A DNA stretch of 62,864 nt, counting the filler. It is 14 parts of 14 records of this genome, joined end to end, with 100 filler letters (N's around TTAATTAATTAA, not from the genome) between each part and the next. Parts side by side here need not be neighbours in the genome. Positions count along the whole stretch, not along the records: positions 28,709 to 32,729 come from SRR7504441_8343; 13 more parts are not named here. One strand, written 5' to 3'. Positions within the stretch are counted from its first letter, which is position 1; every line of letters begins with the position of its first letter. Position numbers and translations under genes: made by a program. Shown piece after piece: positions 1-58,358 of the stretch. The notes below the pieces were generated by a model. That model was not told the origin of the DNA, made no database searches, and saw only the letters and a list, made by a program, of their open reading frames with translations.

Positions 1-830
1 CATCTCCACTTGCTGCACGCCGACCCCGTCGCTAGTCTGATTAGTCTCTATGACTGCCTCGTCCACCCAACGTCGGGTCCTGACCGGGCTCACGCCCAGG
101 GGGGAGGGGGGGGCACCGTGGACCGAGCATGTAGCTGGCCACCACCCCGGCTGTGGCGCCGGCCACATGCACCACCGCGGAGCCGGCAAAGTCAAGGAAA
201 GGGTAGCCTCGGATGCCCTTGAGCAGCCAGCCGGTTGGGGCCCAAGTCCAGTGAAACACCACAGGCACCACCGAGCTAGACAGTAACCCGGCCAGCGCCA
301 CATACGCCGTGGTCCTGCCCGGCCGGTCAGCCCCGGCCAGACGGCGTACCGACTGGGCTCGCTCAGCCATCAGGCCGGAAGTGATGGTGACCGTATTGGC
401 CACAAAGGCCATCTGCCCGCGCGGTCGGCCGCGGGGCGGAAGGGGGAGGGGGTTGCCTGGAATAGCCAGAAGATCTGGCCTGTTCCGGTTCCGTCGATGA
501 AGAATTGGTCGGTTCCACAAAACCAGTCCGCCGAGGACGAGTTGGTATACAGGCCCGACAACCCCCAGCCCACAGCCCAGAAGCAGACGGCCGAGACTGC
601 CAGATCCATCAAATTCTGGCCCGCCAGTCAGACCGGCTCCCGGCCGGGCGGGCGCCTTGATTATGGTATCGAGGATGCTCCGGACCGAAACACTGCCGGA
701 CTCGAAGAACGAGAAGCCGATTTGCATGTCTGACCGGTCGGTGAGCGGCAGCGGCGAGAGCGGGCGCACAGAAGATGAGCCAGCTCGCATTGCTGATCCA
801 GACCACGTCTGCGGGGTCCGCGATCGTCAT
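1..830 (-). CDS. AMT: Ammonium transporter (Amt/Mep/Rh family), 3'-truncated at window edge, 5 short introns
   Basis: Spliced translation gives WLIFYMQIGFSFFESG, IKNLMDL, FQMAFVANTVTITSGLMAER, PVVFHWTW and DFAGSAVVHVAG, which are Amt signature segments. Introns at 616-655 and 413-456 are GC-AG. Confidence 0.93.
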
Positions 831-1146
831 TGGCCTCTCTTAGAGACGCCTCGTGAGAGACGGGTGCCTCGCCATGGATATCCTTTGTGACTTGGCTACC
901 ACAAAGTCTGTCCTCTGGACAAGGAATCCAGTCACAAAATGACTATCACTCCCGGAACGATCTGCGCTGACAACAAGCTCCCAAGATCTATGCGAAACAC
1001 CCGCCGATAATGAATTAATAATGAATCATCGTAATGTTACTCGCAATCACAATGAAACACATGATACACATGTCGATCAGTCACACTAATATAAAATGAA
1101 TGTACACTGACTACGCGCAGGTATAGCGCGCAGGGTCTCAAAGTGT

Positions 1147-3889
1147 TCATGCGCTCTGTGGGTTGCGCTGGATCCCGCGTTGCTGCATGGTCCGGTTGAT
1201 GTAGATGGTGACCAGCTTGAGCTGGCTAGTGTTGAGCTCTCCCAGGTAGGGCGCAAACTCGTCCCCGAGCTGCATGTAGATGTCCACCAAGCAGAACACC
1301 ACCGCCTTCCTCACCTGCCCCAGCTCGGACCCACACCGCACGGCCGCTCACGTCTGCGCACGGGTTCTTGAAGGCGTCGAACAGGCCCGGGCACATCTGG
1401 GGCACGTGCTCGAGCAGCACCATCGGCGGGAGCATCGGGACCAGCTTGGACAGCATCCTTATGCTCGCCTGGAGCACCGCGCCCGCCTCACTTGAGATGA
1501 GCGGAATCAGCGTGTCGATGCAGCGGTTTGGATTGACGGCCGAGATAAGCTGCTCGAGCGCATCCTCGGCCGCCTGGCACACCTCGCGGGTGGCGTCCCG
1601 GTACTTCTCGAGCAGCTTGACCATCACCACCTGCAGCTCAGGCTGACCGGCCGGCACCCGCCGGAGCAGCACCTCGATGAAGTCTACAAAGCTGGTCGGC
1701 TGGCTCTTTAGCATCTCCTTGATCACCACCAAAGAGAGCTCTCGGATCACGCTCTCGCCGTCGCAGAGCGTCTCGAGCACCACCAGCAGGATCTGCCCAA
1801 AGTAGGAAACCCATGAGGTGCCGCTCCTGCACAGCCTTATGATCTTGTGCAGAGAGTCCTTCCGGCGGTCCGGCGAGGCCGAGGACACGTCCGAGAGCAG
1901 GCTGGGCACCATGCTGGCCGACACTGCATAGCTGGCCCGCGACTCGGTCGGGGCAGGTTCGGGCTTGCGCTGCTCGTGCGGGATCGGGGGCGGCCGGACC
2001 TCCGCGGGCTGTGGGGCCGGGCTGTAGTGTGAAGGGTGGTAACCAATCTCTGGGTTGCTCGGTTCTGGCCGGGCCCTGCTAGGCGCGGTCTGCGGCCTGG
2101 ACTGGTCCTGCTGTGGGTTGGCCCGGGCCTTGTGCAGCGCGAGCTGGCTCTCAAACTCCGGGAGCACTGGGAGCAGCAGCTGCCGGAGCTCAGTCTGGAG
2201 CCCCGTGGGCAGCCCGGCCGCTGTCTGGAGCACCAGCCCGGAGTCCATCTCCCAGACCACCTGGAGCAGCTCGCTCACGGCCTGCCGCAGCTCGGGGCTC
2301 CGGTCGGCTGCGTGAGGGATCGCCTTGGCCAGCACTGGCTTGAGCTGGCCCGAGCTGTCGAGCTGCTCCTCGCTCACCAGCTGGGCGAGCCACTGGACTG
2401 CCGAGGCTTGCACCCGCGGGTTGCCGCCCTCGACCAGACGGAGCAGCACCGGGAGCGTGGCCTCGATCTGGCAGGTTCCGAGCAGCTGCTCGGCCAGCTC
2501 GTCGGCTCGCTCGCGAACGGCCTGCTTCGGGTCGAGCAGCTTCTGCATGATCCTAGGGAGCAGCCGCTCGATGTACGCGGCCACCGGCTCCGGGAACTTG
2601 CAGAGCAGCTGCTCGATTCCGTTGAGCACCGCCAAGCACACCCGGTAGTGCGAGTCAGTCAGCCGCTGGATGTGCAGCCGCATCAGCGCGTGCAGCTCAC
2701 CAGTCACCTCCGCCCGGTACGCCTCATTCCCTATCCTCTCCTGCAGCTGCCCGAACCCGTCCGCCCGGGTCTCCCAGTCCGCGTCCTCTGCCAGTCCTAT
2801 CAGCGCCTTTATCTCGTTCTGTGGCCTGGCCGGCCGTTCCCTTGAGCCAGCCCGCGCCGCCTGCCTCGGCTCACCCCCAACCTCCCTCTGCTCCCCGCCG
2901 TTCGCCCGGGCCCTATGCCCATTCGCGCCGCTCGGCTTTGCGTCTGGCTCTGTCCGCGGCGCTCGGGCTTGCGGGGGCGCCCTCCCCGCCCGCCCGACTG
3001 AGGTAGACCGGCTGCCGCTGGTTCGCGGCGGCCGTTGCTCCGAGGTGGCTGGCATCCGAGTGGGCAGCTCTGCCGACCGCTGGCGCTCCATCATCGGCGG
3101 GCGGCCGGGCTTTGGTGTGCCGTCGGATCGCCTGGTCTTGCTGGCCGACTGGGCCCGGGCTGATTGGGGCACCATCCCGCCCGGCTTGGATCTGGTTCCG
3201 GTCCCGAGCTCACGCCCGAGCGCACCCGGCTCGTACTTGGCCTCGCCCTCCTGGAGCACCCGCTGCATCGACGGGTCCACCGCGTTGAACAGCTCTTGCC
3301 GCCGGTCCTCCCACAGCCCGCAGTACGCGAAGAAGCATGCGCGCGCAGCCGTCCGCACGTTCCCGTCCCGGTCCGACACGTACTTGAGCACCGCGGTCCG
3401 GCAGCCGTCCACGTACCTGTCCATGATCGACTGCGGGTAGGTCTCCAGGATCTGGGCCAGGATCTCAACTGCCCGCCGACGATGCGCCGGCGGTTTCACC
3501 CCACAGACCTCCAGAATCTTGGATACGCACTTGGGCGACACACACGAGTTGACCAGCGAGCGGGTGCCCTGGACCCCGGCCATGTTTATGACTGCAATCG
3601 ACTGGTTGGTCAGCTTGAGCATCCCCTCAATGTACGCCTCGGCGTGCGGCTCGAGCAGCTCAGGGCAACAGGCTGAGATCATCGCAATCGTCGCACACGC
3701 ATCCCGGATTATGGCAGAGCGCAGGTCAGTGAGCTGGACCCCGAGCAGCTCGCGCAGCTCGCGCAGCACCCCGGGCCAGGCCGCGAACTCGGCCGCGTTC
3801 CCGAGCACGAGTGCCTGGAGCTGCTTCATCGCCTTCATCCGGGCGCTCCAGTCTCCCTCAGTGCCGGTCCGGAGCACCGGGAGCACGGC
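1147..3889 (-). CDS. CLASP: CLIP-associated protein (CLASP), TOG/HEAT microtubule regulator, 5'-truncated
   Basis: CLASP_N-like DWSARMKAM..LTDLRSAIIRDAC, an S/R/P-rich linker and a second TOG-like block. The C-terminal ..FKNPCAD|VRKAVVFCLVDIY..LKLVTIYI appears after removing a 37-nt intron (1315-1351). Confidence 0.9.
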
Positions 3890-28708: not shown

Positions 28709-30227
28709 TGACGAGAGAGCCACACACACCAGCCGTGTGGTGGCGCGCTGCGCCGAATGATGAGTCACGAATAAAAACAAAAAATAAATAAAAATAGGGG
28801 CCGGCCAAAGAGGCGCTGTGGCGGTGGCAGGCGGTGCGCCTGGTGGGCCGACCGTTGGCGGCGGCCGGACGACCCTCCGAGCTGGGCTCCAGAGCTATTA
28901 ATAGATCCAACGGACACCGATCCACTCTACAACGGTCGTCTGTCTGTTGGCCGGAATGCAGCCGTTTGTGCTGCCGGAGATCGGCGCGGGCCCTCGGGTG
29001 CTCCCAGCACGCTCCAACGGACATCTCACAACGGGGGGCAGATGGCGGTTGCTGGCTTTGATCGTGCCCGGGAGGTTGGCGGCGGTTGGGACTTAACAGT
29101 GTGACAGTGTGACAGGCCGAGCAATGGGACAACGAGAGGGACGTGCTGCTAGGGATTCCAAGGTGCAGCCCAACGGCATTGCCGTTGACCGCGGGGGTGC
29201 AACGGACAGACGGCGCCGCCGGCCGATGCAGCGAGCCCCCATGCCGCAGCACCACCTTGGTCATCACATCTCGCCGGTGCCGCGAGGGCCCCCCGACAGT
29301 GTGGGGAAGGGGGTGGGGTAGGTGCAGCTTCGGCGGCTGCAGGAGATTCAGAGGGAAAATCAGCACATTGTTGGCCGAATACAGTCGATTAAACGCGGCC
29401 GGGGGTGGGTGCCTTAGAGTATAGGCTAGAGCTAACCGGATCTTGCCACCGCGATTTGGTGGCTAAATATAGCATTCCGGTCGTTTTTGAACTGCCAAGG
29501 GACCTAACCCAAGCTCAGACGGCCATTGTGAGCCGAGCGGGTTGCCAGATTGTCCCGAGATATTGTGGGTGAAACGCGGACAATCCGATCCATGATCAAC
29601 TGGCACACCCATGATCACAACTCGAACGCTATCGCTGCTAGTGTTAATCAACAAGTTAATTAGCAACGGACCTGGTTCTCCCTGTGGATCTGGTGCAACC
29701 TAAACCGCCGTCTCACAGCGCCATTACTACCAGTAGAGCTACTACTAATACACAAGTCTAATACTATACATACAAGTACTTAATATAGCATCAATCTGCC
29801 ACAGGAGCACACCTGAACTCTCGTGCCCTCCTACGGTTCTCTCTATGATTCCGCCGCCCGAGCTGTATCGAGTCCACTTCCCCCCGAACTTTATGTACGT
29901 GCCTGCCTCCAACAGTCAGTTAACCTACAACGGACGTATTAAGGCCTTAATTAATATTAAGGCCTTAATACTGTGTCGTACACTGCAACGGGGCTTCAAA
30001 TGAAGCTTTGATTGAGTGTCGGTTGGCAGGATGATCCGAGGGATTTGTTTAACGATTTGGACATTAGCCTGCCGGACGATAAGAGCGGAGCCGAGTTGAT
30101 CCAGCAACAGCTCGGGCAGGCGGATCCGGCGAGGCTTGAAGAGTATGCCAGTCGGTTGCCTGCTATACACGCTCGCGAGGATGGTATTGTAAGACCGGCC
30201 CGTCGCATCTACCCAACCATACCCTGA
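28709..30227 (+). CDS. Multi-exon gene containing a CFAP97/KIAA1430-like motif, 5' end unresolved
   Basis: Exon at about 29322-29404 reads VQLRRLQEIQRENQHIVGRIQSIK, flanked by GT..AG short introns. Last exon ends ..RIYPTIP* at 30227. Confidence 0.55.
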
Positions 30228-30493: not shown

Positions 30494-32291
30494 TCAGTCC
30501 GCGCTAATCAGAGTCGCTAGCCCAGACCTGTGCCCCATTCCCAACGGCATTAACACCCTAACTGCACCGACTGAGCGGCCCATCGCTCGGCGGCGGCAGC
30601 TTCTGCGCTGCTCATCTGGTCCTGGAGGTTCGCCTTCCGCCACACACTCAGCATGCAAGGTGCCACGAAGCGGTTTTAGCGATAGAATCAATTAGTGCTA
30701 AGCGTCACCTGTCTGTGGTCGGCGCTTGGTTGAGGCTGCATACAGTGCGCTGCAACACCGACCGTCAACTGAATTTAGGCCGAATCAAGCATCACTCACG
30801 CCACTCCTGTGGCACGTTGTAAGGCTGGCCCCACGCCTGAAGAAAAGCGGTTAAAATGCCGTTACAAATGCCGTTAGGATCGCCTGCTGCACCCAGTGGG
30901 CATCAAGCTGCTCGACATTGCACTCTTCCATCACCTGCGTTCGAATTTCAAATTCAAATTCGAGTTCAATTAACCGTCCGGCTTGGCCGCACCCATGCCT
31001 GGCCCTCTGACAGGCTATTCTGAAACCTGCACCGATCGGTGAGGATTCTACCGGCTCGATTCAAATTCAAACTTTGAGGCGGGCACTCGCTGGAATAGCT
31101 GCGGTCGCGGCATGTTGGTACCCAGGTACTGGACTGGGCCTGTTAACAGACTTTCCCGATTAGGAAGAGTGTGTTACACCTGCGGTCGAAGGGTAGCCTG
31201 GCGCGTACGGCTGCTGAGCGGTCGCTGCATGTTGAGGGTTGGCCGCCAGCTGGCGTTGGGCGGCCTGGTGCTGGAGCACTTGCTGGTGCACCGCCTGATG
31301 ATCTTATTCAATCATAAATCTGGATTAATTAAATCGCTCTCAACCTGCTGGTGCCGGAGCGTTTCTTGTTGGATGGCCTGTTGCTGAAGCGCCTGCCTCC
31401 GAATTAAAACAATTAAAGAGTGTTAAGAGCACCTGCTGCTGCATCTGCTGCATCTGGCCCGGCGGCCCGAAATGCTGCGGTGACTTAATCATGACAACAG
31501 TTACTCTTAACACTAATTCACTCTTAACAACCCTCTGACCTGCATCTGTGACCACTGTCGGTGCACGTCGGCCTGGCCGTTTCCGTCAACAATTAAACAG
31601 TCAGATTAATCCCGCCTGGTGCCATCGCACAGCCGCCTCCTGGTAGGTCGGCTGCCGTTGGGTGAGTTAACAATTAAACAGTAATAATTTGCACCGGTGG
31701 TCGTCGTTGCTGCACTGTGGGGTAGGACCCTCGTGGGGGTATCGGCAGCTTGTCCTGACCCGAGTACACCTGTAACGGCATTTCAACGGCATTCCAACGG
31801 CATTTTAACGACCTCGAAGTTGCTGCCCGAGCACAGGAAGTTGCCGACGGTGTGCTGGGCCACCTAACGGACATAATAATAATAATAATAATAAAGCGCG
31901 CACCATCAGCTTCTGCCGGTGGGCCCAGCTCCAGATGGCCACCTGCCCTCCGCTCTGCCTGAATCCCAACAGGCACCCACCTGCCGTTGCCCCGACGCGG
32001 GGGGCCCCACTGCCGGCTCCGGCCCGGCCGGCTCGTCGCGCGGCGGCGGCTTGGACGGGAATGCCGTTGGCTCGCTGGCCGGGCCGCCGGGGGGCGACGG
32101 CAGCTGTTCCCAGTCCTGGGCCGCGGGCTCTGCCGTTACAGTTGCCGTTGCCGTTGCCGTTGCGGGCCGTACCGTCGGGCCGTGCCGGAGAGACCAGCGG
32201 TGACACCTGTGTTGCCCGCCGGTGAGCGGGAGTTTAACGGAATTTAACGGACCAGATCGACCACGTCGGCCGCGGGCTGCTCCCGGTCCAT
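30494..32291 (-). CDS. Intron-dense gene (about 17 introns) for a P/Q-rich protein with a BRK-like module
   Basis: Frame-consistent splicing from ATG 32291 gives MDREQPAADVVDLVSP...QRQVAIWSWAHRQKLMVAQHTVGNFLCSGSNFEVYSGQDKLP...QMQQMQQQALQQQAIQQ. One junction near 30975-31047 and the exact stop are unresolved. Confidence 0.7.
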
Positions 32292-32729: not shown

Positions 32730-32909
32730 NNNNNNNNNNNNNNNNNNNNNNNNNNNNNNNNNNNNNNNNNNNNTTAATTAATTAANNNNNNNNNNNNNNN
32801 NNNNNNNNNNNNNNNNNNNNNNNNNNNNNGTAGGCTCTCTCAATGCCCGCCTTGCGACCAAATAATATTTAAGTGCCGTTCGGACTTATTCTCCTCAACA
32901 AAAGAGAAA

Positions 32910-36254: not shown

Positions 36255-36309
36255 TCGCACAGTACAGGTAGTTAATATGAGTCGCACAGTACAGGTAGTT
36301 AATATGAGT
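36255..36309. repeat. Perfect 27-bp tandem duplication in intergenic DNA
   Basis: TCGCACAGTACAGGTAGTTAATATGAG occurs twice in tandem. Confidence 0.95.
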
Positions 36310-41106: not shown

Positions 41107-41177
41107 CTAGGGTTAGGGTTAGGGTTAGGGTTACGGGTTGCTGAGGCTTTCGCCAAGCCCTAACCCTAATAACCCTG
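41107..41177. repeat. Short telomere-type repeats: (TTAGGG)x4 followed about 20 nt later by degenerate CCCTAA units
   Basis: ctagggttagggttagggttagggttacggg at the contig start and ccctaaccctaataaccctg at 41158-41177. Confidence 0.85.
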
Positions 41178-41242
41178 ATTGGCCTGATTATAACAGTTGC
41201 GTGGCACCCGCGGCGGCGCACAGGGAGTCGGCGGCCCTGGCC

Positions 41243-57652: not shown

Positions 57653-58358
57653 ACTGAGCGTTCTCAATTAAAAAATCATTAAAAACAAATGCCAATAAAT
57701 CAAATAGGCTCTACTGATACCACGTATTTGGGTCGAGCACTAGTCTAGCATGCGAGCCGAGCTACGAATAAGAAGTACTTTATAATACACGATTTTCCTT
57801 AAAGGCGATTTGCTGGTGATGATGGTTCTAATGAGATGATGCTGGTGATGATGGTNNNNNNNNNNNNNNNNNNNNNNNNNNNNNNNNNNNNNNNNNNNNT
57901 TAATTAATTAANNNNNNNNNNNNNNNNNNNNNNNNNNNNNNNNNNNNNNNNNNNNTTCTCGCCCCGATTCTTTCACTGATCTGAGCCGCTCACCGCTCAC
58001 CCCCCATTCAATGTTACGAATGTTACTACCTGCATTTTGAGAAAACTGTTCTTGGAATTTGAACTCGTGCTACTAGATTAGATTTGTACTGCTTAGCTTT
58101 AGCCGACTCATTACTGGATTACTTCTATTCATTCATTAATTTTCCAATCCCACTGGACTAGAACTAGATCAGATCAAGAAAGGTAAATTGGCATTAATAT
58201 TAATATTGTATGTACCGGTACAGTAGATAGATGAGAGATAGATCTGCAATCGTGAATTTTTATGCGAGCCTCCGATTCATCCGAGTGGCAATGGCCGTGT
58301 ACACATGTGCTATACATGTGCTAAAGGTACGTACTACCGTACACGCAGTAGTCATGAC

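Follow-up and report, generated by a model that had tools for sequence, protein, structure and literature searches.

The 62,864-base stretch of DNA analyzed here (the window) consists of 14 contigs of 3-9 kb each. The contigs are linked by N44-TTAATTAATTAA-N44 spacers (13 linkers, for example 32730-32829), so distances across a spacer are meaningless. Our analysis centers on the contig at 28709-32729 (the focal contig; 4,021 bases, 57.8% GC), which carries a predicted intron-dense, CAG/Gln-rich gene on the minus strand. The short AT-rich introns modelled in this gene share exact words with one another, mostly with close neighbours, far more often than expected by chance.

The gene was modelled by removing eight AT-rich islands first and then adding three more, with ends set by the reading frame. 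On the minus strand every island is flanked by GT (GC in two cases) and AG. None of the 11 predicted introns has a length that is a multiple of 3, and with all of them removed a single open frame begins with an ATG at 31906-31904 and ends with a TGA at 30794-30792. Nine of the modelled introns have GT-AG ends and two have GC-AG ends; the latter two could instead use an in-frame GT donor located 9 or 15 nt upstream. The introns are 40-65 nt long (497 nt in total), and for seven of them the length is either 40 or 43 nt. A CAG codon precedes six of the introns, and nine are in phase 0. Their pooled GC content is 39.8%, seven of the 11 lying below 43%, compared to 64.6% in the ten internal exons (33-115 nt each, 570 nt in total). 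Because an open frame is weak proof in GC-rich DNA, a codon model trained on eight long open reading frames (ORFs) of the other contigs was used as a separate test, with exons scored singly. The best sense frame agreed with the frame demanded by the intron lengths in 10 of 11 exons (chance about 1e-4 by our own arithmetic). The model frame of the last exon (30792-30836) was not supported, and the 3' end of the gene is therefore uncertain. Six introns folded singly gave ordinary structures (z -1.6 to +1.3). With these folds and with GT/GC-AG ends, the islands do not conform to the nonconventional intron type of euglenids and hemistasiids, and they are best read as spliceosomal introns of the U2 type.

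A sequence-only reading of this DNA had reported three words shared between introns, and all of them are present as described. The 14-mer AACAATTAAACAGT occurs exactly in introns I5 and I6 and with one mismatch in I8, and the 12-mer TTCAAATTCAAA occurs exactly in I11 and I12 (positions in Table 1). The third word, CTCTTAACA, is found on the plus strand at 31504-31512 and 31521-31529 and on the minus strand at 31421-31429. Elsewhere in the window, AACAATTAAACAGT has no further match with two or fewer mismatches (shuffle mean 0.06), CTCTTAACA has no other exact copy, and TTCAAATTCAAA has one unrelated match with one mismatch, at 58052. All reported copies lie within modelled introns of the one minus-strand gene. 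The confinement to introns extends beyond these words. Maximal exact matches of 10 nt or more number 15 between 30790 and 31910, and all of them are intron to intron or within one intron. Ten are direct, five of these within a single intron, and five are inverted. The non-intron 56% of this region is touched by none of them.

Two independent nulls place this sharing far above chance. The first used dinucleotide-preserving shuffles of each of the 11 introns (n=1000), which form 55 pairs. Pairs sharing at least 9, 10 and 12 nt number 7, 6 and 3, against shuffle means of 0.99, 0.29 and 0.019, and none of the 1000 shuffles reaches any of these counts. For the second null we used real sequence and compared all 118 AT-rich islands of the window that measure 18-160 nt. 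A shared stretch of 10 nt or more is found in 26 of 6306 island pairs drawn from different contigs. Within the focal contig this is the case for 5 of 27 pairs no more than 300 nt apart (Fisher p = 1.5e-7) and for 0 of 126 pairs farther apart. On the other 13 contigs it holds for 3 of 92 close pairs (Fisher p = 0.008). The explanation by chance in AT-rich, low-complexity sequence, which the repetitive and AT-rich nature of the introns would favor, is thus refuted.

The seven sharing pairs differ in length, distance and orientation. I5 and I6, which are adjacent, share 14 nt in direct orientation (alignment z 9.8), and the adjacent I11 and I12 share 12 nt, also direct. The adjacent I7 and I8 share 11 nt in inverted orientation, located within 31-nt arms that are 74% complementary. 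I8 shares 10 nt with I5 and 10 nt with I6, both direct. I4 and I13, 0.9 kb apart, are related by a perfect inverted match of 14 nt, and I4 and I5 by an inverted match of 9 nt. Adjacent introns account for 4 of the 7 sharing pairs, compared to 10 of all 55 pairs (label permutation 306/20000). The five pairs that do not involve the CCGTT repeat described below lie a mean of 142 nt apart (39/20000). The short range proposed by the sequence-only reading is therefore borne out by both permutations.

What is shared is a core, not a whole intron. Once the core of 14-17 nt is set aside, I5 and I6 are not mutual best matches in their flanks among 15 introns. The 14-mer core has the same orientation and relative place in I5, I6 and I8, with 12-14 nt on its 5' side and 15-17 nt on its 3' side. 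TTCAAATTCAAA is found at differing relative positions in I11 and I12. The exons between the sharing introns were said not to be duplicates of each other. This was upheld, as no exon pair flanking sharing introns reached z 2.5. Weak similarity (z 4.9-5.4) was seen for two exon pairs that do not flank sharing introns, and it includes a 17-nt match with one mismatch at 31101 and 31218.

Our analysis also revealed a fourth word family, which the sequence-only reading had not listed. AATGCCGTT belongs to a dispersed 11-nt minisatellite present in I4 and I13, and all nine of its copies in the window are on the focal contig. The pentamer AACGG/CCGTT occurs there 39 times against 8.6 expected, and 1-10 times on each of the 13 other contigs. 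The sharing extends into a neighbouring plus-strand gene, in which three CCGTT-rich segments (P1-P3) may be spliced. Codon phase is 2 before P1, 1 after it and still 1 across P2, as the lengths demand. In an all-against-all alignment the introns of both genes form one network (for example, I5-P3 z 7.3). Five of the 11 introns (I3, I4, I7, I12 and I13) are themselves short tandem repeats. Tandem Repeats Finder (TRF) detected such repeats inside I3, I4, I12 and I13 and also in P1 and in a possible further intron, I1, across which the codon-frame check was inconsistent.

Table 1. Predicted gene, introns and CCGTT-rich segments on the focal contig, with positions counted along the window
Feature	Position	Strand	Length (nt)	Predicted ends	Description
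Intron-dense, CAG/Gln-rich gene	30792..31906	-			Modelled span; 5' and 3' ends uncertain
I1	32207..32252	-	46		Possible further intron, uncertain; 2.3 copies of a 10-nt CCGTTAAAxT unit
I3	31864..31903	-	40	GT-AG	30% GC; interior (TTA)x7 (period 3, 7.3 copies); ends GTCCGTTAG
I4	31770..31812	-	43	GT-AG	3.4 copies of the 11-nt unit with AATGCCGTT
I5	31652..31694	-	43	GT-AG	14-mer core at 31669-31682; 3' part resembles P3
I6	31573..31615	-	43 or 58	GC donor (43 nt) or in-frame GT 15 nt upstream (58 nt)	14-mer core at 31588-31601
I7	31475..31539	-	65	GT-AG	CTCTTAACA twice, 10-nt repeat at lag 17; inverted match to I8
I8	31393..31432	-	40	GT-AG	Core 13/14 at 31408-31421; 11-nt inverted match to I7 (31419-31429)
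I9	31295..31344	-	50	GT-AG	30% GC; codon frame shifts across it as its length demands
I10	31140..31179	-	40	GT-AG	Phase 1
I11	31027..31072	-	46	GT-AG	TTCAAATTCAAA at 31060-31071; of 3 candidate acceptors, only the one used here keeps the frame
I12	30935..30974	-	40	GT-AG	6-nt microsatellite; TTCAAATTCAAA at 30947-30958; 8-bp internal hairpin
I13	30837..30883	-	47 or 56	GC donor (47 nt) or GT 9 nt upstream (56 nt)	2.4 AATGCCGTT units, opposite to I4
P1	32502-32536	+	35		CCGTT-rich, neighbouring gene
P2	32604-32627	+	24		CCGTT-rich, neighbouring gene; unusually short if spliceosomal
P3	32677-32709	+	33		CCGTT-rich, neighbouring gene

The CCGTT motif is not limited to the modelled introns. Several AACGG/CCGTT, GTCCGTT or CCCAACGGCATT sites on the focal contig lie outside them, and the 12-mer CCCAACGGCATT is found exactly at 29169, 30540 and 32689. 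We considered GTCCGTT as a sense 5' splice motif across the contig, which carries 9 of the 14 window copies. A plus-strand gene appears to occupy the left half of the contig, so the orientation argument for this motif fails there and the proposal was abandoned. A stop-terminated, coding-looking segment on the plus strand (30025-30225) suggests a gene convergent with the intron-dense gene. At 29936-29971, an inverted repeat of 16 nt, perfect and with a spacer of 4 nt, forms a palindrome of the TTAAGGCCTTAA type. This part of the contig may belong to an intron or untranslated region of a plus-strand gene. No Pfam family was found for eight ORFs or exons on the focal contig.

Several of the other contigs point to a eukaryotic host. 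Their ORFs encode eukaryotic domains, including CLASP/TOG, an ALG9-type mannosyltransferase, PX, an amino-acid transporter and a two-pore K+ channel. The ALG9-like ORF retrieved no relative at E <= 1e-10. The transporter ORF has relatives at 68% and 55% identity, and further relatives, which are named, are a colponemid (identified through bioRxiv 10.1101/2022.09.26.509509), a chlorarachniophyte and kinetoplastids. A TTAGGG array of about five units is found at the start of one contig (41107-41139). About 50 nt past it are CCCTAA-type units in the reverse sense (41107-41180 overall), telomere-like in sequence and odd in arrangement. On another contig a 27-nt unit is perfectly duplicated in tandem in an AT-rich stretch (36255-36309).

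The CCGTT family is also found outside the window. Scanning metagenome contigs for a pair of adjacent CCGTT units identified 12 contigs with tandem arrays of the 11-nt AATGCCGTT unit. Two of them (L001 and L012) are 99% identical, so the 12 contigs represent 11 distinct places. In BLAST comparisons I4 matches all 12 loci, and the loci match the window solely at I4 and I13. Neither these loci nor the window gave a match in Rfam, and a literature search for the 11-nt array string returned none. We read three of the loci (L010, L004 and L007) as runs of AT-rich islands separated by GC-rich, exon-like stretches, with such arrays in each consecutive island, which is the phenomenon of the focal gene at a larger scale. 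In L004 (700-860) a unit of about 78 nt, comprising an exon-like stretch and a CCGTT-type AT-rich island, is duplicated in tandem. Direct repeats flank four of the 13 arrays, with lengths of 9, at least 12, 20 and 22 nt (0-2 of 200 shuffles), and are absent from the other nine. The clear junction repeats are in L005, L007, L008 and L011. In L006 an identical 53-nt element is present in two introns of one ABC-transporter gene (520-650 and 977-1107). A target duplication of 16-20 nt lies on either side of each copy; it contains AGGT and so supplies both donor and acceptor. A 93% copy of the element is found in L002.

One of the related loci may connect the family with a transposon. L009 carries a hAT transposase gene (789-3153; Dimer_Tnp_hAT E = 1.8e-18) with a BED-finger-like N-terminal ORF. 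A dense CCGTT/CCGAT array (1-300) is located 0.5 kb beyond the transposase ORF, and a 14-nt AGCTAAAGCTGTTA array lies on the other side of the gene. The CCGTT/CCGAT array is matched by I1 (score 31), I4 (68), I13 (51) and P2, with 0 of 300 shuffles reaching each match. I5, I6, I8, I7, I9-I12 and all exons have no match to it. We also considered the 14-mer core as a CpG-decayed dimer of the CCGTT unit; this was not supported, as I5, I6 and I8 gave z 0.7-1.5 against the array. In the maize Ac/Ds elements, subterminal AAACGG repeats are described as transposase binding sites (PMC3260210). The dispersed CCGTT family in the focal gene may derive from hAT ends.

The reported words are real, non-random, restricted to introns, short-range, core-sized and present in either orientation. 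This agrees with copying at the DNA level into sequence on which selection does not act. Inverted sharing, as between I7 and I8 and between I4 and I13, points to a process at the DNA level such as template switching, one of the two copying mechanisms that the sequence-only reading had put forward. The other, gene conversion, in its classical form needs flanking homology. Such homology is absent, which leaves gene conversion unsupported. The explanation we prefer, although we place it somewhat below an even chance, combines short-range copying at the DNA level into neutral intron filler with insertion of dispersed repeat modules. The interiors of the introns would be unconstrained AT-rich filler, made and remade by copying. 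Slippage would produce the tandem repeats within single introns. Short-range template switching, perhaps where a fork has stalled or when a break is repaired with a templated insertion, would copy cores of 10-17 nt between introns no more than 300 nt apart in either orientation. Modules of the dispersed 11-nt CCGTT minisatellite would be inserted into introns as a third source. Exons would be free of such copies because selection removes them there.

Several observations weigh against this explanation. The effect is strong in one gene only, and of the three close pairs on other contigs, one is a plain 27-nt tandem duplication. In all three introns with the core (I5, I6 and I8), the branch-point-like TTAAT within it keeps a distance of 20-22 nt to the 3' splice site, so selection could maintain the core. 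These three introns do not match the hAT-side array, and insertion of CCGTT modules therefore fails to explain the words first reported. Target duplications at the window introns are weak (I8, 9 nt with one mismatch; I6, 8 nt with one mismatch; I13, 6 nt), and the splice consensus alone yields 3-4 nt of duplication-like repeat. Splicing of the modelled junctions is inferred from the DNA sequence alone. A search of the remaining 58.8 kb of the window and of 20,243 bases of related loci yielded no further copies of the three words; this search space of only about 79 kb leaves room for a dispersed origin of the words.

The strongest alternative, which we judge unlikely, is that the cores are parts of very short mobile elements, micro-introners or miniature inverted-repeat transposable elements (MITEs), that create or seed introns. 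Their clustering would reflect nearby reinsertion in either orientation. The dispersal of the CCGTT family of the focal gene is consistent with such elements, as are the direct repeats of 9-22 nt at 4 of 13 related arrays, the 53-nt elements of L006 with their AGGT target duplications and the L002 copy, the presence of both orientations in the window and the reach of the sharing into the neighbouring gene. A MITE-like origin has also been proposed for noncanonical euglenozoan introns (PMC12621601). However, neither the rest of the window nor the 20.2 kb of related loci shows another copy of the three words, and only cores are common to the introns. No terminal inverted repeats or 8-bp target duplications were recognized at any modelled intron, no clear target duplications of other kinds were seen at the window introns, and no transposase, hAT or other, was found in the window. 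Since little related sequence was searched, a mobile micro-element stays a serious rival.

Whole introns could instead have been duplicated or transposed within the gene, by reverse splicing or by copying into a nearby CAG/G site, and then have decayed, with the core kept as a branch site. Transposition of introns is among the accepted candidate mechanisms, and indirect cases are described in Oikopleura and Mycosphaerella (PMC3443670). The equal place and orientation of the core in I5, I6 and I8 would agree with it, as would the length of 43 nt common to I5 and I6. However, the flanks outside the core are no more alike than those of unrelated introns, which leaves the idea of I5 and I6 as whole-intron paralogues unsupported beyond the core. 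The inverted pairs I7/I8 and I4/I13 are impossible by reverse splicing in the sense orientation, and the word shared by I11 and I12 lies at differing relative positions. We consider this origin of the sharing distinctly improbable.

Selection on the RNA could maintain the words if they were intronic splicing enhancers, or if pairing between introns helped to define exons of 33-50 nt. The RNA of I7, the following exon and I8 (31393-31539, minus strand, 147 nt) folds into one hairpin around the 42-nt exon (-50.7 kcal/mol, z -4.0, 0/200 shuffles), and a YTRAY-type motif in the core keeps its distance from the 3' splice site. However, any inverted copy would yield such a hairpin automatically, and the introns fold ordinarily when taken singly. 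Each word is present in only two or three of the 11 introns (the 14-mer in I5, I6 and I8, the 12-mer in I11 and I12). We consider a role as RNA signals very unlikely to be the cause of the sharing. Strong selection for specific words, the alternative offered in the sequence-only reading, may act on the 14-mer core.

The idea of a repetitive protein that grew by ancient tandem duplication of exon-intron modules is largely refuted, and we give it hardly any weight. Several exons end in Trp-x-x-Gln-like peptides, two exon pairs elsewhere in the gene show the weak similarity noted above, and the 78-nt unit in L004 is a tandem copy of an exon-like stretch with its island. The exons beside I5/I6/I8, I11/I12 and I7/I8, however, are dissimilar though the intron cores are identical, which is the reverse of neutral decay, and the inverted sharing would be left unexplained. 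The flanking-exon comparison rules against exon duplication.

The focal introns share features with several known systems and differ from each of them. Introners, described in Micromonas, Aureococcus, fungi and dinoflagellates (PMC3879977, PMC9860276), likewise repeat sequence between introns, and for many families an origin from DNA transposons with target duplications has been proposed (PMC3879977, PMC9860276). They are whole-intron copies in many unlinked genes (PMC9860276, PMC3879977), whereas here cores of 10-17 nt are shared mostly within 300 nt. In a small search space, no further copies of the three words were found. The CCGTT arrays of I4, I13 and P1-P3 do belong to a dispersed family, in the form of variable arrays rather than a defined element. 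The sequence-only reading had set the focal introns apart from introners. This distinction stands for the sharing of cores. It does not stand for the AATGCCGTT repeat, which is dispersed over 12 unrelated metagenome contigs, so part of the sharing derives from a dispersed family.

The short introns of the BOC1 regions of Mamiellales, as described in PMC3491373 and PMC3879977, are similar in size (40-65 bp), in being AT-rich within GC-rich exons and in their mostly GT-AG ends. They also have no conserved branch site, are many per gene and are limited to particular loci, most genes having few introns (PMC3491373, PMC3879977). At less than 75 nt and less than 43% GC in GC-rich exons, the focal introns fall within this type by pooled GC, and 7 of 11 do so individually. 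In contrast, the BOC1 introns are described as motif-less singletons without similarity to other introns (PMC3491373, PMC3879977), and the focal introns share words. The host also appears unlike a mamiellalean alga, given the ALG9-like ORF without relatives at E <= 1e-10, the non-green-algal relatives of the transporter and the TTAGGG repeats.

Canonical introns of diplonemids have a median length of 41-42 nt in two species (PMC12621601). They resemble the focal introns in the mode of about 40 nt, G/GT donors, CAG acceptors and some GC-AG ends, and the draft assemblies are likewise fragmentary (PMC12621601); the host is no more than a candidate member of this group. We found no report of sharing between neighbouring introns in that article (PMC12621601).

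Intron gain or remodelling by double-strand-break repair, described in Daphnia and others (PMC3443670), likewise involves short filler copied from elsewhere, and its direct repeats at the junctions are paralleled in the related contigs. It differs in that junction repeats in the window are weak and that copying here would take place between existing neighbouring introns and in both orientations. Ac/Ds elements of the hAT superfamily have the pentamer AACGG/CCGTT in closely spaced subterminal copies (PMC3260210), and the L009 array lies beside a hAT transposase gene. Their 11-bp terminal inverted repeats and 8-bp target duplications were not found in the window, and the arrays of the focal contig are inside predicted spliceable segments of 24-47 nt. 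Our literature searches returned no account of minimal introns that share core-sized words with their neighbours. We regard the phenomenon, seen in one gene, as a variant form of intron turnover and of introners.

The origin of new spliceosomal introns is a matter of debate, with seven proposed mechanisms and few unambiguous cases (PMC3443670). If our preferred explanation is right, this locus would catch intron filler in the making, with neighbours exchanging cores of 10-17 nt and taking up pieces of a dispersed, possibly hAT-derived repeat. It would join slippage, templated repair and transposon-derived introns, which are usually treated apart. For annotation, short AT-rich introns regarded as singletons may show structure when compared at short range and at a scale below the whole intron. 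It is conceivable, though rather doubtful at present, that the introns of about 40 nt in this lineage were created and continually rebuilt from small modules, patch-copied in either orientation over a few hundred bases and also drawn from transposon-type CCGTT arrays, with CAG-rich coding sequence providing the CAG/G junctions. If true, this would represent a local mode of intron gain and turnover that works at a sub-intron scale and is distinct from whole-element introners.

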